Below, piece by piece: positions 6,496-63,522 of a DNA stretch of 64,000 bases. The stretch spans positions 13,043-77,042 of the forward strand of contig JACOTW010000002.1 in assembly GCA_016178135.1 (NCBI GenBank), written 5' to 3'. Every line of letters begins with the position of its first letter. The stretch's first letter is position 1. A model generated the notes under the pieces. It did no database searches and was not told the origin of the DNA. It worked only from the letters and a program-made list of their open reading frames with translations. The stretch is from Candidatus Saccharimonadota bacterium (GTDB lineage Bacteria > Patescibacteriota > Saccharimonadia > Saccharimonadales > JACOTW01). A program made the position numbers and the translations under genes.

Positions 6496-6668
6496 CGATT
6501 GATATATAGGACTTACGTACTTTCTCACCACACCAGACTTAACCTGTGTGGTTACAAACGGCCCATGTTCTCTCGGTGTAGCTATGGCTACCCCTCCAGA
6601 ACCTGAACCGTTTTCGCTCACCCAGCTACACTCTGGCATTGGTAAGAAAGTGCGTAAGTCCTATATAC
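6496..6668. repeat. Long hairpin element, variant with GGACTTACG termini
   Basis: TATATAGGACTTACGTACTTTCTCACC at 6496 pairs with GGTAAGAAAGTGCGTAAGTCCTATATA ending at 6667. It abuts the next type B copy. Confidence 0.6.
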
Positions 6669-6821
6669 TGAACCGATCGCAAAATCCCTCATCCCCATAA
6701 TGAATCAGCTCGAGCAAAAGCGGTTTTCTATGAAGAAGATGTATCCAGTAGAGAGGAAAAACTGTTTGTGGCCACGGTTAGTCGGTCTGGGGATGAGGGA
6801 TTTTGCGATCGGTCCAGTATA
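6666..6821 (+). repeat. Type B palindromic element, copy 1
   Basis: Runs TACTGAACCGATCGCAAAATCC...GGATTTTGCGATCGGTCCAGTAT. The internal sequence is shared with the copies at 52132, 53235 and 56671. It ends 10 nt before the orn ATG. Confidence 0.85.
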
Positions 6822-6831
6822 CTAACGGGTA

Positions 6832-8788: not shown

Positions 8789-8802
8789 TATAATAAAGGT
8801 TC

Positions 8803-8915
8803 TACTGCACTTACGCAAAATCCCCTCATCCCCAGGCCGAATTCTATCGGCTACAAACTGTTTTCGCTCGAGCTGATTCGCTCTGAGAACGAGGGGTTTT
8901 GCGATAGGTCCAGTA
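8803..8915 (-). repeat. Type B palindromic element, copy 2 (short, centre deleted)
   Basis: Runs TACTGCACTTACGCAAAATCCCCTCATCCCCA...GGGGTTTTGCGATAGGTCCAGTA. Its right end supplies TATAAT 8 nt before the dnaG ATG. Confidence 0.8.
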
Positions 8916-8927
8916 TAATAGTCAAGT

Positions 8928-29381: not shown

Positions 29382-29410
29382 TTGACAAGTGTTGTAAAAT
29401 TGGCTATAAT
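29382..29410 (+). promoter_or_regulatory. Consensus sigma-70-type promoter upstream of ftsK
   Basis: TTGACA at 29382-29387, a 17-nt spacer, then TATAAT at 29405-29410. Confidence 0.55.
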
Positions 29411-29490
29411 AGGGCTTACGTACTTTTTCGTGGCAATAGACTGGACCTGCCGCACCCGTTATCTACGAAAAAATGTGTAAATCCTATATA
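29409..29490 (+). repeat. Short hairpin element with GGCTTACG-type termini in the ftsK 5' leader
   Basis: AGGGCTTACGTACTTTTTCGT pairs with ACGAAAAAATGTGTAAATCCT, and most mismatches are G-U compatible on the + strand. The termini resemble the type B ends. Confidence 0.45.
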
Positions 29491-33544: not shown

Positions 33545-34108
33545 ATGGCATTTGGACCAACTGATCTTAAAAAAGGGCAGGTGTTTCAGTTGGATAATAT
33601 TCCGTATCGAGTGGTTGAGTACGGTCAAAAGGTGATGGGTCGTGGGGGCTCAATTGTAAACGTCAAAATAAAGAGTCTACTGAATGGTAAAGTTCTGGAT
33701 AAAACTTTCAAGGGAAATGAATCCATTGAACCCGCTGATGTAACTAATAAAAATGTGCAATATCTCTACAGCGATGCCAATTCATTTTTCTTTATGGATG
33801 AACAAACTTACGAGCAATTTGAACTACCAGTTACTGATATGTTAGATCAAACAGGTTACCTGAAAGAAGGTGATCGTGTTTTGGTTCAGCTGTTTAATGA
33901 TAGGGTTATAAATATTGAATTACCCAAAAATGTTCCCCTCAAGGTAACTTATGCTGAAACCGCGGTCAAAGGCGACACAAGCTCAGCAATAACAAAAGAC
34001 GCGACCGTAGAGACGGGCATTATTGTCAAAGTACCTGCGTTTGTAAAAGTTGGCGATATTATTTCGGTTGATACCGCGACTGGGACGTACCGTGAGCGTG
34101 TCAAATAA
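33545..34108 (+). CDS. efp: elongation factor P
   Basis: 187 aa. DLKKGQVFQLDNIPYRVVEY...GRGGSIVNVKIKSLLNGK is present, with an AAGGAG Shine-Dalgarno upstream. Confidence 0.9.
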   Translation: MAFGPTDLKKGQVFQLDNIPYRVVEYGQKVMGRGGSIVNVKIKSLLNGKVLDKTFKGNESIEPADVTNKNVQYLYSDANSFFFMDEQTYEQFELPVTDMLDQTGYLKEGDRVLVQLFNDRVINIELPKNVPLKVTYAETAVKGDTSSAITKDATVETGIIVKVPAFVKVGDIISVDTATGTYRERVK

Positions 34109-34988
34109 GTATCGCCTAGACAAAGAATTACTGCGTCGAGGATTAGTTGTATCTAGGTCGCAAGCTGAGGATATTATTCGCAGGGGTTTTGTAAGCGTAG
34201 CTGGTATAAGCGTTACCAAACCCGGCTTGTTGGTATCAGAAAATGTACAAATCGTCATAAAATCACGTGTTAGTTTTGTATCACGAGCGGGCGAAAAACT
34301 TCATTCAGTCTTAGATATCCTTCAACTGGATTTGTCGGACAAAGTTGTGTTGGATGTCGGTTCGTCAACTGGCGGTTTTACCGAACTGGCTTTACGCATG
34401 GGGGCAAAAAAAGTTATTGCGGTAGATGTTGGAACCAATCAAATGCATCCCAGCTTGCGTAATGATCCCCGAATTGAACTTCACGAAAAAACCGACATCC
34501 GCAATTATGTGAAAGGATCGACCACTCACATAGACGTTGTTCTGATTGATGTTAGTTTTATATCATTGCGTCAAATATTACCGTACTGCGCTACACTGAT
34601 TGATCGCAATTCGGTGATCGTGGCTATGGCAAAACCGCAGTTTGAGGCTAGACTGGACTTACCCAAAGCTCCCCCATCCCCAGACCAACTAATCTCAAGC
34701 GGTAGCGGTCTGCCTTCTATCAATGTAGCTAAGGCTACCTCTCCTTCAGTCAAACCACTATCAACTCGAGCTGATTTGCCCTGGGAACGGGCGATTTTGC
34801 GTAAGTCCAGTAGAGACATAGTTAAACACAAGGGAGTAATAAAGAACGATAAAATGCGTAGGGAGATACTAAAACACCTTGAAGATAGCATACAAAATTT
34901 GTTCATTATTATCGACAAGGCTGATTCTGGAGTTGCCGGCGCTCGCGGCAATAGGGAGCGCTTTTATTTGTTACGAAAAGCCGGGTAG
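34098..34988 (+). CDS. tlyA: TlyA-like S4-domain rRNA 2'-O-methyltransferase carrying an in-frame type B element
   Basis: The S4 domain reads RLDKELLRRGLVVSRSQAEDIIRRGFVSV. The FtsJ-like AdoMet motif is VLDVGSSTGGFTE, followed by KPQFEA. The GTG start overlaps the efp stop. About 54 codons (34652-34812) are element-derived. Confidence 0.8.
   Translation: MSNKYRLDKELLRRGLVVSRSQAEDIIRRGFVSVAGISVTKPGLLVSENVQIVIKSRVSFVSRAGEKLHSVLDILQLDLSDKVVLDVGSSTGGFTELALRMGAKKVIAVDVGTNQMHPSLRNDPRIELHEKTDIRNYVKGSTTHIDVVLIDVSFISLRQILPYCATLIDRNSVIVAMAKPQFEARLDLPKAPPSPDQLISSGSGLPSINVAKATSPSVKPLSTRADLPWERAILRKSSRDIVKHKGVIKNDKMRREILKHLEDSIQNLFIIIDKADSGVAGARGNRERFYLLRKAG
34652..34812 (-). repeat. Type B palindromic element, copy 3 (inside tlyA, in frame)
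   Basis: Runs ACTGGACTTACCCAAAGCTCCCCCATCCCCAGACC...GGGCGATTTTGCGTAAGTCCAGTA. It translates as LDLPKAPPSPDQ...WERAILRKSS without a stop. Confidence 0.9.
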
Positions 34989-38203: not shown

Positions 38204-38366
38204 TACTGGACTTACGCAAAACTCCCCCATCCCCAGACCAACTAATCCCAAGCGGTAGCGGTCTGTCTTCTCTCGATGTAGCTAAGGCTACCTCTCCTTC
38301 AGTCAAACCACTCCCAACTCGAGCTGATTTAGCCTGGGAACGGGCAATTTTGCGACAGGTCCAGTA
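38204..38366 (-). repeat. Type B palindromic element, copy 4
   Basis: Runs TACTGGACTTACGCAAAACTCCCCCATCCCCAGACC...GGGCAATTTTGCGACAGGTCCAGTA. Confidence 0.9.
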
Positions 38367-39501: not shown

Positions 39502-39709
39502 ATATCATAGTCGACAGTTATTTGAGGAGGAGCTGGCAGTTTTTGCCGCGCCGGAACTTGTGCTGTTGACGTACATTGACATGTCAGACTGGAATATATA
39601 GCGATTTTGGGGTCGCCTAGTGTGTTTGAAACTTGTTTGAAGTATCGAACATAACAGGCGGCCCTAAATGGGGAAGCTGGCGGTAACGCCACAAGACAGA
39701 AAGGTAACA

Positions 39710-40291
39710 ATGAAAAAAATTATTGTTATCGCAATCTTGTTGATGGCATTACTTGCCATCAACTCAACTCTTCCCTCCGCTTCTGCGGAAGGAAGCCAAA
39801 GCAGCGTTACCCTTTCGGGGGCAACGCTTTGTGGTGAGGCCGTGACGATGTCCGTCATGGCTTCTGGATTGGAGCCCAGTGTGGGCTTCAGTTTGGAAGA
39901 CCTCGACGACCAATGGGCGTCTTGGGGTATAGGAGGAGTCGGTTTTGACACCGACTCAGAAGGGGGTTTCACCGGTTCGGTGAAGCTTGTAGACGTTGGC
40001 GGGATCGTCCCAACACCAACACGGTTGGTGTTGTCAGTTTTTACCGACGATCCAGATGCTAACGATCCGTGGGTGTCGGAAGACATTACAGTTAGCGTTG
40101 CTAACTGTAATGCGCCACCGACCACACAGCCACCAACAACGGAGCCACCGACCACACAGCCACCAACAACGGAGCCACCGACCACACAGCCACCAACAAC
40201 GGAGCCACCGACCACACAGCCACCAACAACGGAGCCACCGACCATCAAGAAATCATCGAAGCCAAAAACGGCCTTGATGACGACCTTGTGA
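39710..40291 (+). CDS. secreted repeat protein (signal peptide plus PTTQPPTTE repeats)
   Basis: The signal peptide is MKKIIVIAILLMALLAINSTLPSASAEG. C-terminal (PPTTQPPTTE)x4 repeats and a basic tail follow. The gene is visibly more GC-rich than its surroundings. Confidence 0.65.
   Translation: MKKIIVIAILLMALLAINSTLPSASAEGSQSSVTLSGATLCGEAVTMSVMASGLEPSVGFSLEDLDDQWASWGIGGVGFDTDSEGGFTGSVKLVDVGGIVPTPTRLVLSVFTDDPDANDPWVSEDITVSVANCNAPPTTQPPTTEPPTTQPPTTEPPTTQPPTTEPPTTQPPTTEPPTIKKSSKPKTALMTTL
40114..40244 (+). repeat. Perfect 30-bp tandem repeat, about 4.4 copies
   Basis: The unit GCCACCGACCACACAGCCACCAACAACGGA is repeated head-to-tail without a mismatch inside the CDS. Confidence 0.95.
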
Positions 40292-43816: not shown

Positions 43817-44857
43817 ATGAGTATATTGAGTGGGGTATCTGAATTTTTCGGTCTAGATATGGGGACTACAGCTATTCGCTTGGTAGAACTTAGGGGTAGC
43901 GGGCCAGTTAAAGCTCTAGCTAAATACGCCTATGTGCCCGTTGACAGCAAGCTTGCTTTGAGCGATTCCAAGGCCGATCAATTACGCCTAGTGAAAATTA
44001 TTAATGATCTTATCACCGAAGCACGGGTATTGACCAAAAATGTGGCCGTTGGTATTCCGTCGCAACGAGTGTTTACTACGGTTGTAGATATTGAGCGCTT
44101 GTCGCCTGCCGAGCTGGCTAAAAGTCTGAAATACCAAGCCGACGCCTTGATTCCGACGCCATTGTCAGAATCTAAGCTTGACTGGTCACTACTAGGGGAT
44201 TCACCTAAGGATAAAACAAAGATGGAAGTCCTGCTCTCTAGTGTTACTAATGAATTTGTAGAAAATCGTCTGGATTTGCTGGAATCGATTGGTCTCAATG
44301 TTATTGCGTTCGAGCCGGATAATTTGGCACTTAGCCGCGCATTGATCGCTCCAGACGCAGTTATGCCACAAATGGTGCTTGATATTGGTAGCAAGAGCAC
44401 CGATCTGGTTATTGTTATGAATGGAGCGCCAAGATTGACTAGATCTATTCCGACAGGGTCAGAAGCTATCATTAAAGCCGCAGTACAGAACCTGAATATT
44501 GACGAAAAACAGGCCGGAGAATTTGTTTTTAAATTCGGTCTTTCTAAGGACAAATTAGAAGGGCAAATTGCCCAGGCTATCTTAAGTACGGTTGATTTGC
44601 TAGTGTTAGAAATCGATAAATCCATAAAGTTCTTCCAGGCGCGCTATCCGGAAACCAAGGTTGATCGCATTATCGTAACTGGTGGTGCTTCGGCTTTACC
44701 GGAGTTTCCATTGTATATTGCTAATAAGTTTGGCATAAGCGTTGAGATTGGTAATGCTTGGCGTAACATATCTTTTGCTGCTGATCGTCAGAACGAACTA
44801 CTGGCCGTTTCCAGCCATTTTGGTGTGGCGGCGGGGTTAGCGGAGAGGCAAGAATGA
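43817..44857 (+). CDS. pilM: type IV pilus assembly protein PilM (actin-like ATPase fold)
   Basis: The N-terminus is FGLDMGTTAIRLVEL. 346 aa, followed by pilN and pilO. Confidence 0.85.
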   Translation: MSILSGVSEFFGLDMGTTAIRLVELRGSGPVKALAKYAYVPVDSKLALSDSKADQLRLVKIINDLITEARVLTKNVAVGIPSQRVFTTVVDIERLSPAELAKSLKYQADALIPTPLSESKLDWSLLGDSPKDKTKMEVLLSSVTNEFVENRLDLLESIGLNVIAFEPDNLALSRALIAPDAVMPQMVLDIGSKSTDLVIVMNGAPRLTRSIPTGSEAIIKAAVQNLNIDEKQAGEFVFKFGLSKDKLEGQIAQAILSTVDLLVLEIDKSIKFFQARYPETKVDRIIVTGGASALPEFPLYIANKFGISVEIGNAWRNISFAADRQNELLAVSSHFGVAAGLAERQE

Positions 44858-44904
44858 AAAAACGCATAACGACAAAATCTAAATACGCCCAAATGACCGC
44901 TATG

Positions 44905-45071
44905 TATAGCCCCCGCAAAACAAATTCGGGGGTTTTGGAGCCGATGATCTTCGAGTCAAAAATTGGCTTTTCCGAGGGAAGCATATCATTAGATAAGGTG
45001 AGTGAGGAAAGACAGCTTTTGACCGGAGAGGGCGGTTCAAAAAGCCGTGAATTTGTTTTGCGGGGGCTATA
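44905..45071. repeat. Type A palindromic element, copy 2
   Basis: Runs TATAGCCCCCGCAAAACAAATTCGGG...CGTGAATTTGTTTTGCGGGGGCTATA and aligns along its full length with 5524-5690. Confidence 0.9.
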
Positions 45072-45085
45072 TTATGCTGGTACTG

Positions 45086-45247
45086 TACTGGACTTACGCA
45101 AAGCTCCCCCATCCCCAGACCAATTCATCTTGGCTGGTAGCGGTCTGTCTTCTCTCGATGTAGCTAAGGCTACCTCTCCTTCAGATAAAACAGTTTTCGC
45201 TCGAGATAATTCACTCTGGGAACGGACGATTTTGCATAAGTCCAGTG
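45086..45247 (-). repeat. Type B palindromic element, copy 5 (mosaic of subfamilies)
   Basis: Runs TACTGGACTTACGCAAAGCTCCCCCATCCCCAGACC...GGACGATTTTGCATAAGTCCAGTG. It lies 14 bp from the type A copy. Confidence 0.9.
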
Positions 45248-45272
45248 TACTACTGTCATCAGAGGTTATGTC

Positions 45273-45986
45273 ATGATTCAGTTTAACCTCTTACCTGACG
45301 TAAAGCTTGATTATATTAAAGCTAAGCGAATCAAACGCTTTGTAATATTGATTTCTATTACTATTGCCGGAGCACTTCTGGCAATTATGGTATTGCTGTT
45401 TTTGGCTGTCAACGTCTTTCAGAAAGGTCACCTGGATGACTTGAACGTTGATATCAAAAAGTATAGTACAGAACTAAAGAGTACGCAGGATCTAAGCAAA
45501 ATATTAACTATTCAAAATCAACTTAATAAATTGAATAAACACGATAATACGCCTGGACTACATGATAAAAAACCGGTTGCCTCCCGCTTATTTCCGTATT
45601 TGTCGCAGATGCTTCCTGATAAGCTTAGCATTGCAAACCTTGATGTTGACTTTGAAGTACAAACCATGTCTTTCACCGGTGGTGCTGACAGCTTGAGTAC
45701 TATTAATAAATTTGTTGATACCCTTAAGTTTACAACCTACAAAATTGACAAGGAGCCCAATGAGATAAAAGCTTTCTCAAGCGTAGTGTTAACTAATTTT
45801 GGGCGTGATGACGCTGCTGCCACCTATCAGATAGATCTTAAATTCGACCTTCTTATCTTTGATTCATCGAAAGAAATAAGTATCCTGGTACCTAAAATCA
45901 TCACTACTCGTTCTGAAACCGAAAAGCCAGTTGATCTATTTCAGTCGACAGGTAGCGAACAAATTAATAAACAGGTTAACGAGTAA
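45273..45986 (+). CDS. pilN: type IV pilus assembly protein PilN-like
   Basis: IQFNLLPDVK at the N-terminus and a single TM segment are present. Its position after pilM supports the call. Confidence 0.75.
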   Translation: MIQFNLLPDVKLDYIKAKRIKRFVILISITIAGALLAIMVLLFLAVNVFQKGHLDDLNVDIKKYSTELKSTQDLSKILTIQNQLNKLNKHDNTPGLHDKKPVASRLFPYLSQMLPDKLSIANLDVDFEVQTMSFTGGADSLSTINKFVDTLKFTTYKIDKEPNEIKAFSSVVLTNFGRDDAAATYQIDLKFDLLIFDSSKEISILVPKIITTRSETEKPVDLFQSTGSEQINKQVNE

Positions 45987-49832: not shown

Positions 49833-49842
49833 AAAATGAGTA

Positions 49843-50040
49843 TACTGGACTTACGCAAAATCACCCGTTCCCAGGCTAAACTGGACTTACGCAAAATCGT
49901 CCGTTCCCAGAGTGAATTATTTCGAGCGAAAACTGTTTTATCTGAAGGAGAGGTAGCCTTAGCTACATCGAAAGAAGGCAGACCGCTACCAGCCGAGATG
50001 AATTGGTCTTGGGATGGGGGAGCTTTGCGTAAGTCCAGTA
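49843..50040 (+). repeat. Type B palindromic element, copy 6 (duplicated left terminus, mosaic)
   Basis: TACTGGACTTACGCAAAATCACCCGTTCCCAGGCTAAAC is followed at once by a second TGGACTTACGCAAAATCGTCCGTTCCCAG..., and the copy ends ...GAGCTTTGCGTAAGTCCAGTA. Confidence 0.9.
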
Positions 50041-52052: not shown

Positions 52053-53042
52053 ATGATTAACGGTATAATTATAGTTTTTGTTGGATTGGTTTTGGGTAGT
52101 TTTGTCAACGCGTTGGTTTGGCGGCTACATCTACTGGCCTTACGCAAAGCTCCCTCATCCCCAGACCGACTAACCTCGGCTACAAACAGTTTTTCCTCTC
52201 TCGATGTACCTTCAGGTACCTCTCCTTCGGATAAAACTGTTTTCGCTCGAGCTGATTCGCTCTGGGAACGAGGGATTTTGCGTAAATCCAGCCTACAATC
52301 CACCAAACATCCAAAAAAACCTGATAATAAAAAATATTCGATTGTTAGTGGGCGTAGCATGTGTCCAGATTGCCGACACCAGTTGGCCTGGTATGATTTG
52401 ATCCCAGTCATTAGTTGGCTAGGTCTTCGGGGGCGCTGTCGCTATTGCCATAGACCAATAAGTTGGCAGTATCCATTAGTGGAAATACTAACTGCTGTAA
52501 CTTTTATCACATCGTATGTTTATTGGCCTTACTCTTGGTCTGCTATTGGTATTACGTTATTTATTGTTTGGATCGTGTCGCTTATCAGTTTCATGGCGCT
52601 TGCCGTCTATGATTTGCGTTGGTTTATTTTGCCGGATAAAATTGTATTTCCTTTAGTCGGACTTGCGGCCATCCAGATCATCATGCGGACTGTATTATAT
52701 GGCGAAATAAGTCCTATACTAGGTGGTCTAATAGGTGTTGTTACGCTTGCTGGTTTATTTTATGCACTGTTCCAATTCTCAAAAGGACAGTGGATTGGTG
52801 GAGGAGATGTAAAGCTGGCAGTAGCTCTAGGTATGTTGGCAGGCGGAGCGGCCGAGAGCGTGTTACTGCTATTTTTAGCATCGTTAATTGGTACTTTGGT
52901 GAGTTTACCACTTCTGTTAAGTAAGAAACTAAAAAAGAATAGCCGGATTCCATTCGGCCCCTTACTTCTTATGGCTACCTTTATCGTCTATATTTTTGGG
53001 TCTGACATCATTAATTGGCTTAAGCTGTATTATTTTTATTAG
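52053..53042 (+). CDS. pilD: prepilin peptidase (A24 family) carrying an in-frame type B element
   Basis: LGSFVNALVWRL...CPDCRHQLAWYDLIPVISWL...CRYC forms a zinc-finger-like region. GGGDVKL is an active-site Asp motif. About 53 codons (52132-52291) are element-derived. Confidence 0.85.
   Translation: MINGIIIVFVGLVLGSFVNALVWRLHLLALRKAPSSPDRLTSATNSFSSLDVPSGTSPSDKTVFARADSLWERGILRKSSLQSTKHPKKPDNKKYSIVSGRSMCPDCRHQLAWYDLIPVISWLGLRGRCRYCHRPISWQYPLVEILTAVTFITSYVYWPYSWSAIGITLFIVWIVSLISFMALAVYDLRWFILPDKIVFPLVGLAAIQIIMRTVLYGEISPILGGLIGVVTLAGLFYALFQFSKGQWIGGGDVKLAVALGMLAGGAAESVLLLFLASLIGTLVSLPLLLSKKLKKNSRIPFGPLLLMATFIVYIFGSDIINWLKLYYFY
52132..52291 (-). repeat. Type B palindromic element, copy 7 (inside pilD, in frame)
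   Basis: Runs TACTGGCCTTACGCAAAGCTCCCTCATCCCCAGACC...GAGGGATTTTGCGTAAATCCAG. It translates as LLALRKAPSSPDRL...WERGILRKSS. Confidence 0.9.
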
Positions 53043-53047
53043 ATAGA

Positions 53048-53140
53048 ATTTTCGCACTTTTTCATCACCCCAGATCATACTTGAACGGCCATAAACATTA
53101 CTCAAAATTTGGTCATTTTGTTTTGGGATGGCTATACATA
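53048..53140 (+). repeat. Family C repeat, immediately 3' of the pilD stop
   Basis: Runs TTTTCGCACTTTTTCATCACCCCAGATCATACTTGAACGGCCATAAAC...TTTGGTCATTTTGTTTTGGGATGGCTATACA. Related copies lie at 8165, 60471 and 61651. Confidence 0.7.
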
Positions 53141-53179
53141 GTCCTTATGTTATAATTCGAGTGGACATGGATATCTATT

Positions 53180-54289
53180 ATGGACAGTCATAAACAGCCA
53201 CAAGCATCCCATAGATCTTATAGTCAGGGCAGTTTACTCGACTCACCCAAAATCGCCCGTTCCCGGAGTGAATTATCTCGAGCGAAAACTGTTTTATCTG
53301 AAAGAGGGGTACCTGAAGGTACATCGAGAGAGGAAAAACTGTTTGTAGCCGAGGTTAGTCGATCTGGCGATGGAGGAGTTTTGGGTAAGTCGAGTATAGG
53401 CTATACGATTGTTGAAGTTATGATTTTTCTGGCTATTTCCAGTGCCATACTTGTTAGTGCTTTATTGTTGGTAGGTGGGCAACAACAAAAAACGCAGTTC
53501 ACCCAATCTTTAAGAGATATTGATTCTCATATTCGTGACGTAATGAATGACGTGTCAGCTGGTATTTATAGTAATACTGGCAATTTTCAGTGCCTGGCAG
53601 ATAATGCCGGCAGTGCTCCAGTTATATCGGCTGGTGCCGATAAACAAGGAGCAAATGTCAGCTGTATTTACATCGGTAAGGTTTTACAGTTTGGACCGGC
53701 TTCCAGTCCAGAGGATTTCAATGTGTTTAGTGTTGCCGGCCGTCAATTTCGAGGCGCGCCAATTGCCTCAAAGTTAGTTTCAGATATAACAGAGTCTAAG
53801 CCAGTGCCAATAGCGCCGAATATCGCTCATCTTGCCATGATTGGTCCAGGATTAGATGCTACAGATTACAATAAACTCGATTACGGACTTACTATAAAAG
53901 ACAATAGTGATGGGGCTCATCCGGGCTTAAGTTATGATAATGGTAGTGGCCCGCAGGCCATAGGGGCATTTGGCTTTTTTTCTAACTTTGTTACTTATCC
54001 TGACGGTAGTGCAAGTCCTGAATCAGGTCGACAGTTTACCGATATTTGGGTGATCCCTGCCAGTGCTTATGGCGATGATGCGCGAAATGTTGCCGACGAC
54101 ATCATTGATATTGGTGGTTTAAGCAGTTCAGCTGCTACCTCGTTTAAAAATCCGGCTAAAGGTATTACTTTATGTTTTTTGAGTAGCGGAACAGATCAAT
54201 ATGGCAAAATAACTATCGGTGATAATAATCAAAGACTTGCTACTACGTTGTCAGTAGGTTACAGAGGAGATGGGAGTATTTGTACATGA
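53180..54289 (+). CDS. pilin-like protein (prepilin-type N-terminal domain) with an element-derived leader
   Basis: The mature N-terminus would be G|YTIVEVMIFLAISSAILV. The 72 codons before it are mostly type B element. An alternative TTG start at 53381 is preceded by GGAGGA and would give the leader MGKSSIG. Confidence 0.7.
   Translation: MDSHKQPQASHRSYSQGSLLDSPKIARSRSELSRAKTVLSERGVPEGTSREEKLFVAEVSRSGDGGVLGKSSIGYTIVEVMIFLAISSAILVSALLLVGGQQQKTQFTQSLRDIDSHIRDVMNDVSAGIYSNTGNFQCLADNAGSAPVISAGADKQGANVSCIYIGKVLQFGPASSPEDFNVFSVAGRQFRGAPIASKLVSDITESKPVPIAPNIAHLAMIGPGLDATDYNKLDYGLTIKDNSDGAHPGLSYDNGSGPQAIGAFGFFSNFVTYPDGSASPESGRQFTDIWVIPASAYGDDARNVADDIIDIGGLSSSAATSFKNPAKGITLCFLSSGTDQYGKITIGDNNQRLATTLSVGYRGDGSICT
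53235..53396 (+). repeat. Type B palindromic element, copy 8 (in the 5' part of the pilin-like gene)
   Basis: Runs TACTCGACTCACCCAAAATCGCCCGTTCCCGGAGTG...GATGGAGGAGTTTTGGGTAAGTCGAGTA. Confidence 0.9.
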
Positions 54290-55463: not shown

Positions 55464-56666
55464 ATGAAAAAAATCATTACACTGGACTTACGCAAAATCG
55501 CCCGTTCCCAGGCTAAATCAGCTCGAGTTGGGAGTGGTTTAGCTGAAGGAGAGGTAGCCATAGCTACATCGAGAGAAGACAGACTGCTACCAGCCGAGAT
55601 GAATTGGTCTGGGAATGGGGGAGCTTTGCGTAAGTCCAGTACACTCAAAAAAAACCAGTCTGGTCTAGTTTCTATAATAGTAACCTTGATAATCATGTTG
55701 GTTATGAGCTTAATTGTTATTGGCTTTGCTAAGCTGGTACGGCGTGATCAACGCCAAACGCTTGATAAGCAACTTAATGCCCAGGCGTTTTATGCTGCCG
55801 AAGCAGGCATTAATGACGCTAGGCAAGATATTAGGGTCGCCCTTAATGCTGGAACACCAATTCCAGAGAAATCTACCTGTGCCCCAAACAGTAGTCCGCC
55901 TTTTGATAAGTCAAATATAGTTGATAGCGCACGTAACATTTCTTATACCTGTCTTCTTGTCGATCCGACGCCTGAAAGTCTGGAATACAGCAATATTGAC
56001 ACCAGCACCTCGACAGTTGTGCCGGTAACACTTAAAGATACGACCGACCACATTACGTCAATAACTGTAAGCTGGCAAGCTAAAGATGGAAATACGAATT
56101 TTGCTTGTCCGGGTAGCGGTGTTTATCCGGCTCTGCCCGCGTCTTCTCTATGGGGATGTGGTATAGGTATTATGCGACTAGATCTTGTCCCGACTGATGG
56201 ACATAAGACAAGGGCTGATTATACGAATACGACTTTCAGTAGATTCCTGTATCCTTTACCGGGGTCGCCAGGAGTTAATTCTGTTGGATATGTAGGTAGT
56301 CAAGGTGATTTTGTGCCAGTACAGTGCAGTGCTACGGCTGTACCAAAATACTGTACGTTAACCATAACGGGTTTAAGCACCACCAATTTATATATCCGTC
56401 TGAAGTCAATATATATTGCTTCAAACGCTACGATTACTTGTACGACTGCCTCGGGTGCGGCATGTGAAATGGGCGGGACGCAGATATTGGTTGATTCTAC
56501 AGGGAAAGCCAATGACGTTTTACGTCGTATACAGGTGAGGGTTCCTGATGTAATATCAGGTATATTGCCGGAAGGAGCGCTTGATACCAGTAGCAATATC
56601 TGTAAACGTTACGTTATTGTTAATAACTCTTCTTTGAGCGATCCTGATTCATGCGGTACCAATTAA
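55464..56666 (+). CDS. PilX-like pilus-associated protein with a type B element in frame after codon 6
   Basis: MKKIIT + [LDLRK...LRKSS] + TLKKNQSGLVSIIVTLIIMLVMSLIVIGF. A basic leader followed by QSG and a hydrophobic helix is the PilX-type pseudopilin pattern. Confidence 0.65.
   Translation: MKKIITLDLRKIARSQAKSARVGSGLAEGEVAIATSREDRLLPAEMNWSGNGGALRKSSTLKKNQSGLVSIIVTLIIMLVMSLIVIGFAKLVRRDQRQTLDKQLNAQAFYAAEAGINDARQDIRVALNAGTPIPEKSTCAPNSSPPFDKSNIVDSARNISYTCLLVDPTPESLEYSNIDTSTSTVVPVTLKDTTDHITSITVSWQAKDGNTNFACPGSGVYPALPASSLWGCGIGIMRLDLVPTDGHKTRADYTNTTFSRFLYPLPGSPGVNSVGYVGSQGDFVPVQCSATAVPKYCTLTITGLSTTNLYIRLKSIYIASNATITCTTASGAACEMGGTQILVDSTGKANDVLRRIQVRVPDVISGILPEGALDTSSNICKRYVIVNNSSLSDPDSCGTN
55481..55641 (+). 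repeat. Type B palindromic element, copy 9 (in the PilX-like gene, in frame)
   Basis: Runs ACTGGACTTACGCAAAATCGCCCGTTCCCAGGCTAAATCAGCTCGAG...GGGGGAGCTTTGCGTAAGTCCAGTA. Confidence 0.9.
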
Positions 56667-56670
56667 TCTT

Positions 56671-56831
56671 TACTGGACTTACGCAAAATCCCTTGTTCCC
56701 AGGGTGAATCAGCTCGAGCGAAAACAGTTTTGTCTGAAGGAGAGGTACCCAGGAGGTACATCGAGAGAAGAAAAACTGTTTGTAGCCGAGGTTAGTCGGT
56801 CTGGGAACGAGGGATTTTGCGTAAGTCCAGT
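56671..56831 (+). repeat. Type B palindromic element, copy 10
   Basis: Runs TACTGGACTTACGCAAAATCCCTTGTTCCCAGGGTGAATCAGCTCGAGCG...GAGGGATTTTGCGTAAGTCCAGT. Confidence 0.9.
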
Positions 56832-56854: not shown

Positions 56855-59038
56855 CTAGGACTTACGTGAATGAAATTTCTCATGTATAGCTTTTAAGTGT
56901 GGATCGGTAACATGAGTGTATATTTGGGTTGTAGATATATTACTATGACCAAGCATTGCCTGAACTGACCTCAAATCTGCACCGTTCATTAATAAATCTG
57001 TTGCAAATGAATTATGTGAGACGAAGCCATCTGCAATTAAATTTTCGGTTTCTTCTACTGTGAAGTCGTATACAGTTATATCTGTTTTGATTCTATCGGT
57101 CTTATGAACTTTGAGCCATTTTATCTGGTTATTACTACTCGCTAGTCTACGGAGTAGGTTCATTCTGGGGTCTAATATACCAGCACGTTTGAATCGCACA
57201 TAAAAACGCATTGCTGTTTCTTTGGTCGGGAGGACTTGGCCGCTTAAGTATCTAGAGTGGTCCTTTAGTGTTCTTTGATCTTTACGGCGAGTATACAGAC
57301 TTTTACCGGATTCTTTGACTAGTTTGTTTAGGTTAACTAGCATTTCAGTAATTGGTAGTTTTTCACCTACAAAATCCGGACTGATGTTTATCTTTTTGAG
57401 CGTAGGAATTTTGGTGACAAATTTTTGCTGATCTGGCTGGTATAGTATCTGAAGATTGTAGATTGTGAAGGGTTGTTTGACCGTATCTGCAGATTTATGG
57501 GGTAAACGAACCATACGGTTACGTGTATAGAAATGGGCATCAATTCCAAGTCTAAGTAATAACATCTGGATGTCTTTTATAAATTCTTTGTTGGCGCTGA
57601 AGAATTTGGCGTCGCCCTCGTTGCCGTCTGCGTCGTAGAGACCGGCCAAGAAATGGGCAACGGCACTTTCTGATGACCTGAATAATTTGTCTGGTACACG
57701 TAGGCCATGGGTTGTGGTTGCGAGCCCTAGTTTCTTTAGTAGTTTTACAAGAGGCATATGGTAGCAAGTGACATTAAAACTGTTGGAATTAGATGCTGGC
57801 TTGATTTCGACTTTTTTGTTGAATAATTTTTCTATTAAGTCAACGTAGAGGCTCAAGAAAACTTTGTTTTTGTCGTGTAGTATTACGCCGTGCCGACGTT
57901 CGCTGACAGTTCCGTCACCACATATGTAGCCAATAAGTCGCCACATGTCGTTCGACAAATACTGTTTGCTTTGTTGGGATATTTTCTTGACCCCCATAAC
58001 GTAATCACCAGATTTTAGGTCACTTGCTTGGATTTGAGCAAATCCGTCTTTGTCTAGAGTAAATAAACGGTGTTCTGGGGTACACACAAGCTCGTAACCA
58101 CCGGCAGTTAGCTGAATCATTTCTGTAGATTTGTGGGTGCTTGAATGACTAATGGCTTGCGATGTCTGTGTACCTTTATTGAGATGGAGCGACTTTACGC
58201 TGTGTTTGGTTGAATTATAAAGATATTCTGCACTTACTATTCTACGGGGAAGGCTGATTCTAGTATTTGGGTGTAGACAATGGCGGAGCGTGTGGGGGGA
58301 TACGTGTTTGGTGATGCCAGCAAGGACTGCGTAGCGGGCGACTAATCTTTGTACGCTGCGGGCGGTAAGGCGGTAATAATTGCCGCTGACAGTTGATTTT
58401 TTGCTGCCGCTGTATCTGATAAATAGGGGTAGGGAATTGTCTTGGCGTTTGTCCATATATTGTGTAATCCACCAAGCCGATGTATCGCTAATGAATATTG
58501 GGCGGTCTTTTTGGCCTTTGCCCCGAACCATAAACTCGCGTCGTTTGAGATTGATATGATCCTTGTCTAGCCCTACAAGCTCCGAGACGCGCAGTCCCGA
58601 AGAAAATAATAGTTCTAAAATAGCCCGATCTCTTAGTCCTGGTAAGTTATCAATATTTGGTTGAGAAAATAATCGTTCAAGTTCCTCGGGTGCTAAAAAG
58701 GTAACTTGTTTTCTGACAGTTCGAGCCAGTTCAATCTTGTCAGCAGAGATAGCTGGGATATTGCGTTTGGCGCAATACTTCAAGAAGCCTCTTAGCGCTA
58801 TGAGGTGATAATTCTGGGTATTTTTTTGTAATTCATCACTTGTATTTGTGCCCAGTCGATTCAGCCACAATCTCCATTTCCGTATCATTTCCGTATCAAT
58901 ACCAGATATTTTAATATCACCGGTGAAATCTATTAAGCGCGTTAGGTAGTGGTCATAGTTACGGATAGTTTTTTGTGATCTATTTTGTTCGATTTCTAGG
59001 TATTCCAGGAAATCAGTTTTGGCTTTAGAAAATAACAT
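56855..59038 (-). CDS. XerC/XerD-family tyrosine recombinase interrupted by an intein
   Basis: The exteins total 304 aa. The N-terminal SAM-like domain reads [33 protein letters not shown]-type box I ([19 protein letters not shown]) and HVSPHTLRH are present. After the 423-aa insert come [34 protein letters not shown], which include the catalytic Tyr. Confidence 0.88.
57011..58279 (-). mobile_element. Class 1 intein with a LAGLIDADG homing endonuclease (423 aa) inside the recombinase
   Basis: It begins with Cys (CLHPNTRI, block A). Block B is TPEH, and the LAGLIDADG motifs are [11 protein letters not shown] and [11 protein letters not shown]. Blocks F/G are [21 protein letters not shown], followed by the +1 Ser. 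Codon checks: TGT at 58279-58277, AAT at 57013-57011, TCA at 57010-57008. Confidence 0.88.
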
Positions 59039-59122
59039 AACCTTATTGTACGATATATTTCCACTTGACCAGTATGTATGACCCTCCGGACCGTTCCATG
59101 CAACAGAGATAATAATCGTGTA

Positions 59123-59235
59123 TACTGGACCTGTCGCAAAATCGTCCGTTCCCAGGACGAATCAGCCCGAACGGAAACTGTTTGTAGTCGAGATTATTTA
59201 GTCCGGGATACAGGAGAGCTTTGCGTGAGTCCAGC
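59123..59235 (+). repeat. Type B palindromic element, copy 11 (short)
   Basis: Runs TACTGGACCTGTCGCAAAATCGTCCGTTCCCAGG...GAGAGCTTTGCGTGAGTCCAGCA. It lies in the divergent xer/ndk intergenic region. Confidence 0.8.
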
Positions 59236-59272
59236 ATAGATACATCAAAATTAACAATAAATAAGGACATCA

Positions 59273-60460: not shown

Positions 60461-60470
60461 ACTAATCAGG

Positions 60471-60565
60471 AGTTTCGCACTTTGCCATTTCCCCAGCTCA
60501 TACCTGAATGGCTACAAACTCCCACTCCTCCATCAATATAACTACTTTGGGATGGATTTGACGAA
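60471..60565 (+). repeat. Family C repeat, 3' of the PH-domain gene stop
   Basis: Runs GTTTCGCACTTTGCCATTTCCCCAGCTCATACCTGAATGGCTACAAACT...TTTGGGATGG. Confidence 0.7.
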
Positions 60566-61645: not shown

Positions 61646-61650
61646 TCACG

Positions 61651-61705
61651 CATTTCGCCCTTTGTCGTTGCCCCAGCTCACACCTGAACGACTACAAACT
61701 TCTAC
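61651..61705 (+). repeat. Family C repeat (partial), 3' of the PPIase stop
   Basis: CATTTCGCCCTTTGTCGTTGCCCCAGCTCACACCTGAACGACTACAAACT is followed by the 13-nt palindrome TACTGGACCAGTA. Confidence 0.65.
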
Positions 61706-61724
61706 TGGACCAGTAGTTCAGTAT

Positions 61725-61886
61725 AAACTCGACTTACGCAAAATCGTCCATTCTCAGACCAACTAACCTCGGCTGATAGCGGTCTGCCTTCTTTCGATGC
61801 AGCTAAGGCTACCTCTCCTTCAGTCAAACCACTATAAACTCGAGCTGATTTGCCCTGGGAACGGGCGATTTTGCATAAGTCCAGTG
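61725..61886 (-). repeat. Type B palindromic element, copy 12
   Basis: Runs AAACTCGACTTACGCAAAATCGTCCATTCTCAGACC...GGGCGATTTTGCATAAGTCCAGTG. Confidence 0.9.
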
Positions 61887-61959
61887 TAGACCCGGCGATT
61901 AACATTTTTGCCTTTGGCAAATCTGCATCGCCTATTCAAATCGCTGGAACCAACCAATG

Positions 61960-61990
61960 AAAACACCCCAGACCAGCTGGGGCATTTTCA
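61960..61990. terminator. Bidirectional-looking terminator hairpin
   Basis: CCCCAG-ACCAG-CTGGGG is flanked by an A-run upstream and CATTTTC downstream. It lies just 3' of the minus-strand ORF that ends at 62027. Confidence 0.55.
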
Positions 61991-62026
61991 TTGGCGGGGC
62001 CATAACCTTTGGGGTGTGGAACTATT

Positions 62027-62440
62027 TTATTGAGTCGGAGGAAGTGTTTCAGGATTTTTAGCCTTTGCTGCCAGCTCTGCCGCTTCGTTGACCACAGCTC
62101 CCGCCAATCTTGTATATCCTGTTTCAAATCTCTGATCAAGAGGCAGTAAACCCGCGTTTCGTACAGCAGTTAGCCCAAGCTCATAGTGTTCTTTATATTT
62201 ATTAGGGTCGCCTGGTAAGAGGTTTCCATCTGCATCATATTCGTGAGGTAGGGTCTCGGTTACCTTAAATGCGGCGCGAACACCACGAAAGTCCATTGAA
62301 TCAGTGTCAAGCCCACTGGGAGCAATATGCCGGTTGTGGTGGGGCTTACGCCATCTACGCGCACCATCTTCAAAAAACCTTCGAGCATCGTTAGGGTTAA
62401 TCACGTCAGGCATTTTCTGTTCTGATTCTGGGGAACTCAT
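62027..62440 (-). CDS. hypothetical protein
   Basis: The start is taken at MSSPESEQKMPDV (ATG complement at 62438-62440). No family recognised. The ORF is visibly more GC-rich than its neighbours. Confidence 0.4.
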   Translation of the reverse strand: MSSPESEQKMPDVINPNDARRFFEDGARRWRKPHHNRHIAPSGLDTDSMDFRGVRAAFKVTETLPHEYDADGNLLPGDPNKYKEHYELGLTAVRNAGLLPLDQRFETGYTRLAGAVVNEAAELAAKAKNPETLPPTQ

Positions 62441-62610
62441 ACAATCATTTTGACATAGATAGCATAGTTTGTCAATGCTCAGGGGGGTGGGCTCGACCGG
62501 TTTCGCCTTGATCGTAGCACAAAGTGCGCTGCTTAGTCGACTCCAACTTCCTTTGGTCGTTCTAAGGCAAGCTGTGGGGTACGCCACTGGCATATCCATT
62601 CGATTATACC

Positions 62611-63342: not shown

Positions 63343-63506
63343 TACTGGACCTGTCGCAAAATCGCCCGTTCCCAGGCTAAATCAGCTCGAGTTGGGAGTG
63401 GTTTGGCTGAAGGAGAGGTAGCCGTAGCTACATCGAGAGAAGACAGACCGCTACCAGCCGAGATGAATTGGTCTGGGGATGGGGGAGCTTTGCGACAGGT
63501 CCAGTA
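63343..63506 (+). repeat. Type B palindromic element, copy 13
   Basis: Runs TACTGGACCTGTCGCAAAATCGCCCGTTCCCAGGCTAAATCAGCTCGAG...GGGGGAGCTTTGCGACAGGTCCAGTA. Confidence 0.9.
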
Positions 63507-63522
63507 TAATTGGAGTGATCTT

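Follow-up and report, generated by a model that had tools for sequence, protein, structure and literature searches.

In-frame 'protein-coding palindromes' have been treated as a speciality of Rickettsia (PMC10969869), and the Rickettsia palindromic elements (RPEs; Ogata et al. 2000, 2002), as summarised in the same paper, are the closest described counterpart of the element reported here. We found this element in a 64,000-nt stretch of a Candidatus Saccharimonadota genome (contig JACOTW010000002.1; the whole stretch is referred to as the window), where one copy at 53237-53394 lies in the leader of a pilin-like gene (53180-54289) whose setting is a type IV pilus cluster. Measured against that summary, the element shares with RPEs its form, a palindrome of ~150 nt that folds to a long hairpin and occurs many times in a small gene-dense genome, and its behaviour, in-frame insertion in unrelated housekeeping genes that stay unbroken and whose proteins gain ~50 residues. 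It differs from RPEs in its host, a phylum of the Candidate Phyla Radiation (CPR), in bearing clear inverted repeats at its termini with an IS701-like 4-bp target duplication, in being open in one frame on both strands and in having copies also in cleavable prepilin leaders; the likeness is one of behaviour and no sequence relationship is expected. [quoted passage not shown] On this proposal, to which we attach even chances as a whole, the pilin-like gene has a 74-residue class III leader, three quarters of it transposon-encoded and longer than any described, that is removed by a prepilin peptidase (PilD) which itself bears the element.

The ends of the element point to a second group of known systems. 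ISPlag1 is an IS701-family insertion sequence of Planktothrix with an inverted repeat that starts CAGGACTTACGCAAGC... (PMC2464740), and in our literature search the terminal sequence was printed only in that paper. The string GGACTTACGCAA is common to our element and to the published repeat, and both the CPR type of the family, CT(G/C)GACTTACGCAAA, and the non-CPR type, (T/C)AGGACTTACGCAAA, have their terminal core in common with ISPlag1. Shared ends, small size, target duplications and stable hairpins are likewise features of the IS701 family and of cyanobacterial MITEs. The Nezha MITE (ISNpu3) of 130-170 bp in Anabaena and Nostoc (PMC3184786) has the same hosts and size as many of the matches listed and is, by these two features, a possible member of this group. 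MITEs whose open frame is fused in frame to a host open reading frame (ORF) are also known (intragenic ERIC, Anabaena MITEs and Coxiella QMITE1; PMC10969869). The fusions there are occasional, however, whereas here a whole CPR lineage shows a bias towards a length of 3n and towards the absence of stop codons. The third comparison is with class III prepilin peptides, whose leaders have 6-51 residues and are cut by PilD on the cytoplasmic side after a conserved Gly (PMC6916266). Our gene resembles these in its hydrophilic, positive leader ending in Gly, in its hydrophobic helix with Glu5 and in the PilD encoded next door, but differs from them in a leader of 74 aa, 54 residues of which come from the transposon. 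Geobacter PilA is known to be made as two prepilin isoforms through alternative start codons. The features of the locus are as follows.

53148-53156, + strand: extended -10 promoter-like box TGtTATAAT, read in the sequence
53180-54289, + strand: pilin-like gene with leader insertion
53180-53182, + strand: ATG, first start codon of the ORF and putative ancestral and current start
53180-53401, + strand: leader coding region of 74 codons, ending with Gly74 (GGC, 53399-53401)
53233-53236, no strand: left 4-bp target-site duplication TTTA
53237-53394, + strand: palindromic MITE-type copy (c53233) of 158 nt, in the orientation reading LDSPKIARSRSELSRAKTVLSERGVPEGTSREEKLFVAEVSRSGDGGVLGKS
53372-53383, + strand: GGAGGA-GTT-TTG, a motif like a Shine-Dalgarno (SD) sequence with an in-frame TTG (codon 68)
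53395-53398, no strand: right target-site duplication TATA
53402-54289, + strand: mature pilin-like protein YTIVEVMIFLAISS..., 295 aa and stop

The original prediction, made from the sequence alone, had the ORF run from the ATG at 53180 through a repeat element in frame into ...GKSSIG|YTIVEVMIF. Translation bore this out, ending the leader with ...GKSSIG|YTIVEVMIFLAISS, and in three NCBI assemblies a 369-aa product is annotated from the same ATG. The repeat nature is equally clear, with at least 14 copies in the window by BLAST and repeat searches. The boundaries had to be revised: within the span 53235-53396 given for it the sequence is as described, but the element proper covers 158 nt between 4-bp duplications, which for this copy have one mismatch (TTTA vs TATA). 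The leader, put at ~72 aa and thought to be element-encoded, is 74 aa long with 54 codons inserted, and codons 1-19 and 74 are ancestral. From this arrangement the copy seems to have landed at TTTA between codons 19 and 20 of a 20-codon leader. The resulting leader is hydrophilic, with a grand average of hydropathy of -0.78 and a net charge of +3, and it ends in a prepilin motif, G74|YTIVEVMIFLAISSAILVSALLLVGG, with Gly at -1, a hydrophobic N-terminal helix and Glu at +5. This motif is conserved in the homologues examined, and PF07963 (N_methyl) was found in 4 of 48 matches. We obtained 48 homologues of the mature part, most of them 263-311 aa long; their leaders mostly have 7-20 residues and end with G|(Y/F)T(I/V)(I/V/F)E, and some are named PulG-like pseudopilin by their source. 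By these features the gene probably codes for a minor pilin or a pseudopilin.

We then compared the locus to its closest orthologue, P0002, which is 77% identical and lies at the syntenic locus L002 (pilin-like gene, two small genes, PilX_N-like gene, integrase). The BLAST alignment of the window with L002 begins exactly at 53399, breaks at 55471-55656 and resumes at 55656, and thus L002 has empty sites for two leader insertions, the second of them in the PilX_N-like gene of the window:

55464-56666: PilX_N-like gene
55482-55639, + strand: element copy in the PilX_N-like leader, with TACA duplications at 55478-55481 and 55640-55643

Both empty sites are clean, and the contrast of filled with empty sites is evidence that the element is mobile. 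A MAFFT pairwise alignment of the same regions misplaced the insertion, and BLAST coordinates and direct reading were used instead. P0002 has a leader of 20 aa, MNDHKHAKSGYRDWAATMPG|YTIFE, and the window gene minus 162 nt gives MDSHKQPQASHRSYSQGSLG|YTIVE, which is also 20 aa. The two genes share their start, ATG..CATAAACA (ATG-x-x-CAT-AAA-CA), and upstream of it the block CCTTATGyTATAATTC with the extended -10 box; the box in the window was missed by a simple -35/-10 scan as it comes without a -35 box. For the PilX_N-like gene the empty-site leader in L002 reads MKKQQINTDNSQSG|LVS and the leader in the window reads MKKIIT[54 aa]LKKNQSG|LVS, so that it has 67 aa with the element instead of 13, and residue 67 is where the PilX_N match begins. 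The sister assemblies L004 and L005 (99% identical) carry the copy at 53237-53394 in identical form, with no difference over 281 nt. A scan of metagenomes for closer orthologues bearing the leader insertion found none. At L002 291-332 there are 41 extra nt between the conserved GGATATCCATT and the ATG; their first six, GTCCAG, are also the element's terminal hexamer, and the stretch may be the remnant of another copy.

This comparison also bears on whether the gene is being lost. An insert of 54 aa in a signal peptide could block membrane targeting or recognition by PilD, and minor pilins are often redundant, so the insertion could have left a gene on its way to becoming a pseudogene. We consider this highly improbable: the mature part is intact (296 codons), its identity to the orthologue is high, the pilin-like protein differs in one residue between strains, the frame stays open across the element, and the genes downstream are undamaged and in syntenic order.

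Rather, we think it probable that the ancestral ATG is still the start and that PilD cleaves off the 74-aa leader. Transcription would still begin at the conserved TGnTATAAT box, translation would begin at ATG 53180 and the ribosome would pass through the hairpin; the leader, hydrophilic and net-positive, would stay in the cytoplasm, and PilD would cleave at a putative site after Gly74. As PilD would remove the leader, the mature pilin would be unchanged and the insertion nearly cost-free. Removal of a long leader by PilD had been one of the two options of the original prediction, and it fits the comparative evidence, namely the ATG, promoter and 20-aa leader in common with the element-free orthologue and the second prepilin leader with an in-frame copy. 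Leader copies are present in 2 of the 5 prepilin-type genes of the cluster, a pattern that fits survivorship, as a cleaved leader is among the few coding places where 54 extra residues are free.

Several observations weigh against this reading. Counted from ATG 53180 the leader has 74 residues and from TTG 53381 it has 7; the longer form exceeds the range of 6-51 in PMC6916266 and is beyond precedent, though not far beyond, and the start in use and the cleavage are both what we infer. The SD-like sequence of ATG 53180 is no more than a weak GGA 8 nt upstream; among all candidate starts of the cluster, the TTG is the one preceded by the strongest such string, GGAGGA. Ribosomes in elongation would briefly open the hairpin, which could permit internal initiation. 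The retention of an open frame is weak evidence: 17 random substitutions leave the frame open in 41% of cases, and we rejected it as a test of translation as it is uninformative. There is a single close element-free orthologue; its start is the choice of a gene caller, and P0002 also has an in-frame ATG that would give MPG|. The three strains bearing the insertion are identical across the copy and hence carry no information on selection.

The other option of the original prediction was that the right arm had diverged and been exapted as ribosome-binding site and start codon. The right arm does differ from the usual one (GATGGAGGAGTTTTGGGTAAGTCGAGTA vs the window-wide consensus GATGGGGGAGCTTTGCGTAAGTCCAGTA), and the substitutions do make GGAGGA (53372-53377), by G->A only. 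The TTG (53381-53383), however, is not their product, for the consensus has it, as do all full-length copies that were aligned. It is in frame after GGAGGA, at a distance of 3 nt, and 4 nt, the spacing originally given, is the distance from GGAGG. A start there would give the 7-residue leader MGKSSIG|Y, as had been predicted. It had also been stated that the same substitutions in other copies would point to no specific adaptation, and this is what we observed, so that the claim of exaptation fails. GGAGGAG and GTTTTG occur together in three further copies: L117:12364-12521, in the same genome ~2.2 kb beyond the end of the window, intergenic, with the next gene 258 nt away; L004:20163-20320, from the sister strain, which reads GTCCAG and not GTCGAG; and L084:8-165, in another Saccharibacteria species, where GTCGAG is present as in L117. 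When all copies of this study were oriented, the right-arm string GATCTGGGGATGGAGGAGTTTTGC(G/A)TAAGTC(G/C)AG recurred in these three. GGAGGAG, GTTTTG and GTCGAG are all carried by the subfamily consensus, and CTCGAC/GTCGAG ends are a matched pair that is common in other CPR genomes. From this consensus the copy at 53237-53394 differs at 17 of 158 positions, only 2 of them in the right arm (GGGG->GGCG and TTGCG->TTGGG). Near the right end a single change is private to this copy, TTGCG->TTGGG, and ACGC->ACCC in the left arm mirrors it; with both arms changed to match, the stem that sequesters the motif is preserved and the motif is not freed. In the predicted fold GGAGGA-GTT-TTG pairs fully with the left arm in the minimum-free-energy as well as the centroid structure. 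A promoter and terminator scan of 52950-53500 found none, inside the element included, and thus gives no support for a transcript starting in the element. On the sequence comparison, an evolved ribosome-binding site with start codon is not supported. GGAGGA-N3-TTG looks instead like inherited subfamily sequence that resembles a start and is at most a fortuitous minor start, with TTG 53381 at most a minor or alternative start.

The inherited motif could still have been captured by chance as the main start, which would be pre-adaptation rather than adaptation. The gene would then be read with the leader MGKSSIG, and ATG 53180 with the first three quarters of the element would be a 5' region that is untranslated or incidentally translated. 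GGAGGA is a perfect SD core with the TTG in frame, the 7-aa basic leader is like those of homologues (MKQKNTG, MSGGPKPQG, others), and ATG 53180 is poor in SD; a G-rich stretch and an in-frame TTG would likewise yield a plausible 13-aa leader in the PilX-like gene. Nevertheless we regard capture as unlikely. The motif is not specific to this copy, its spacer of 3-4 nt contrasts with the 4-12 nt by which SD-led starts elsewhere in the window are spaced, TTG initiates weakly, and the motif is hidden in a long stem that a compensatory double change has kept. No internal promoter that would free the right arm was found in the scanned region, and nothing has been lost of the ancestral ATG, the leader codons or the exact length of 158 nt. 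Furthermore, SD sequences are little used in this genome (~10 of 41 window starts have one). Many window genes have a TATAAT-like box 5-10 nt upstream of the start, which suggests leaderless mRNAs. The in-frame phase of the two leader insertions was also tried as a test between the starts and rejected, since for a 3n insertion both starts predict the same phase.

The element folds into a hairpin of -73.6 kcal/mol (z = -6.15) in the 53237-53394 region, and its 24-nt arm has 0 expected occurrences in shuffles. The arms pair perfectly over ~17 nt and imperfectly over ~45 nt, as terminal inverted repeats do, and of the 51 pairs in the consensus hairpin, 9 show compensatory changes. So stable a structure with covariation, found at the same relative place in 2 of the 5 prepilin-type genes of the cluster, may be taken for a cis-regulatory device: a stem of ~160 nt in the 5' coding region could modulate translation or mRNA stability of the minor-pilin operon, by slowing ribosomes, as an RNase III target or by temperature sensing, and owe its retention to that effect. 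Effects on transcript processing are known from MITEs such as Correia elements. We judge this improbable, more so than capture of the TTG. The same structure is present in all copies, including intergenic ones and ones deep in enzymes, and is thus a property of the transposon and not of the pilin-like locus; compensatory changes in palindromic DNA can also result from the correction of one arm by the other, and the orthologues manage without the element. An Rfam scan of the window reported four tRNAs only, with no match at 53237-53394.

Across copies, which align over their full length, the ends of the family are CT(G/C)GACTTACGCAAA...TTTGCGTAAGTC(C/G)AG. No transposase gene lies within the 158-nt element. 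In order to trace the ends we scanned 185,579 species genomes for GACTTACGCAAA-N105-135-TTTGCGTAAGTC and obtained at least 110 stretches. The hosts among the matches listed are Nostoc, Calothrix and other cyanobacteria, Legionellales, Undibacterium, Moraxella, Hymenobacter and Chloroflexota, and within the CPR Saccharibacteria, CPR2 and Nomurabacteria. The paired ends GACTTACGCAAA...TTTGCGTAAGTC (L006-L115) flank elements of 130-160 nt with unrelated interiors, and in this set the matches listed also include Burkholderiales and several CPR phyla as hosts. Judged by their ends, these elements are a cross-phylum MITE superfamily of IS701 type. IS701-family elements typically make a 4-bp duplication, with 5 bp in one subgroup. 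Of 25 CPR-type copies among the matches listed, 13 have an exact duplication of 4 bp with the pattern TNNA, and most others are one mismatch off; a 5-bp duplication was considered for this type and rejected, as the flank census favoured 4 bp. The non-CPR copies, with ends (T/C)AGGACTTACGCAAA, differ: 61 of 109 among the matches listed have 5-bp duplications, their lengths vary and open frames are not enriched. Because of its clear terminal inverted repeats and the IS701-like 4-bp target duplication the element can be classed as a classical MITE, and from its sequence features the family is best read as MITEs, that is, non-autonomous DNA transposons, with IS701-type ends.

The CPR-type copies have a property of their own. 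They are 158 or 161 nt long and together with the 4-bp duplication add 162 or 165 nt; among the matches listed, length plus duplication is a multiple of three in 14 of 17 copies. The frame LDLRK...LRKS, which starts CTG GAC TTA CGC AAA, is free of stops in 15 of 17 of these listed copies on the + strand and in 11 of 17 on the - strand. For 93 non-CPR copies among the matches listed we found ~10% open per frame and lengths spread evenly over the three residue classes. Adding 162 or 165 nt with a stop-free frame on each strand, the CPR element can survive inside genes. The window illustrates this, as all five copies that lie in frame in ORFs are exactly 158 nt long, whereas most of the intergenic copies have indels or are truncated. 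Besides the two leader copies described above, the window holds the following.

52134-52291, opposite orientation: copy in PilD, codons 28-80, between the first transmembrane segment and the Cys-rich motif
34653-34810, - strand: in-frame copy; the host gene (34050-34988) codes for a TlyA-like S4+FtsJ methyltransferase and is hit in its FtsJ domain
45088-45245, - strand: in-frame copy near the 3' end of a small ORF after pilM (44854-45276), annotated as 140 aa in L004
49881-50038, + strand: intergenic copy in the pilT/pilC gap, adjoined by a partial copy at 49840-49876
56673-56830, + strand: intergenic copy between two convergent genes, frame A broken
61728-61884, - strand: 157-nt intergenic copy that sister strain L004 (99% identical) lacks
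63345-63504, + strand: 160-nt copy, arm variant CCTGT/ACAGG, its end 18 nt upstream of ATG 63523
6664-6821, 38206-38364 and 63895 to beyond 64000: further copies
8801-8917 and 59121-59239: shortened copies (~117-119 nt), arm variant of the CCTGT/ACAGG type, which look like internal-deletion derivatives

The copy in PilD stretches the 84-position A24_N_bact profile across residues 10-156, and the alignment with the element-free PilD of L003 has a 64-aa gap exactly at the insertion place. As the in-frame copies within PilD and the TlyA-like methyltransferase come without an alternative start, translation through elements must occur in this organism. We also searched a profile (hidden Markov model) of the element peptide against 1.84 billion representative proteins. 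It matched 77 clusters, mostly short spurious ORFs, together with real proteins in which the peptide is embedded: a group-1 glycosyltransferase, NAD-epimerase, DnaX, S4+FtsJ methyltransferase, lysozyme, DUF1361, DHFR and PAP2 phosphatase. In a word-index search of proteins, the element peptide retrieved no more than 12 short ORFs. P0088 and the window gene 34050-34988 are TlyA-like S4+FtsJ methyltransferases of different genomes and have the element at different positions and in opposite orientations, which points to independent in-frame insertions into one gene family.

An in-frame, RPE-like MITE with IS701-type ends would thus be present in a phylum where such elements appear to be undescribed; our literature search found no paper that pairs Saccharibacteria with MITEs. 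If true, the CPR element would be a second, independent case of in-frame protein-coding palindromes, this time in a recognisable insertion sequence family with ends common to cyanobacteria, Proteobacteria, Bacteroidota, Chloroflexota and the CPR, and a tractable system for studying how a transposon turns translation-neutral. Pili are central to the episymbiotic lifestyle of Saccharibacteria. Should the ATG 53180 start and cleavage by PilD be correct, prepilin peptidases are predicted to cope with leaders that reach at least 74 residues, and PilD is predicted still to work with its first cytoplasmic loop lengthened by 54 residues. There is also a practical side: gene callers report a 369-aa 'hypothetical protein' at this locus and dozens of spurious ORFs of 45-120 aa from the repeat, and once the element is recognised, gene starts and domain boundaries can be corrected in CPR genomes.

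The window has a G+C content of 42.8%. The remaining genes of the pilus cluster are the following.

43817 (start): pilM
46933 (start): pilB
48753 (start): pilT
50087 (start): pilC
51485 (start): pilin
52053-53042, + strand: prepilin peptidase gene pilD (Pfam A24_N_bact and Peptidase_A24)
54280 and 54815 (starts): two more prepilin-type genes

Some further characteristics of the copies were noticed. In three cases the right end of the element and a TATA-type duplication make up a TATAAT/TATACT box 8-12 nt before a start: 8914-8919 (ATG 8928, dnaG), 6818-6823 (ATG 6832, RNase T-like) and 63505-63510 (ATG 63523). Possibly TATA sites resembling a -10 box are the element's targets and are restored when it inserts. 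The copy at 61728-61884 is absent from L004 (window 61708-62486 vs L004 18520-18664), where 35 nt of unrelated sequence are found instead; owing to this filler we did not accept L004 as a clean empty site. L004 also lacks ~490 nt at 61998-62486, overlapping ORF 62027-62599, and the last copy, from 63895 onward, differs between the window strain and L004.

A second repeat of ~55 nt (ATAGGAnTTTCGCACTTTnTCATnnCCCCAGATCAnACCTGAAnGGCTACAAAC) occurs at 53043-53096, 60466-60519, 61648-61699, 6506-6559 and 29409-29449, several times directly after stop codons, that of pilD included, and it opens with bases similar to TAGGACTTACG, the MITE superfamily's end. At 40114-40263 there is a tandem 15/30-nt repeat (GCCACCGACCACACAGCCACCAACAACGGA) within ORF 39668-40291, which encodes a Pro/Thr-rich repeat. 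Finally, 56855-59038 on the - strand encodes a XerC/D-type tyrosine recombinase of 727 aa with an intein and a LAGLIDADG domain according to the precomputed Pfam list; its L002 orthologue has 304 aa, with the intein hit absent from the same list.

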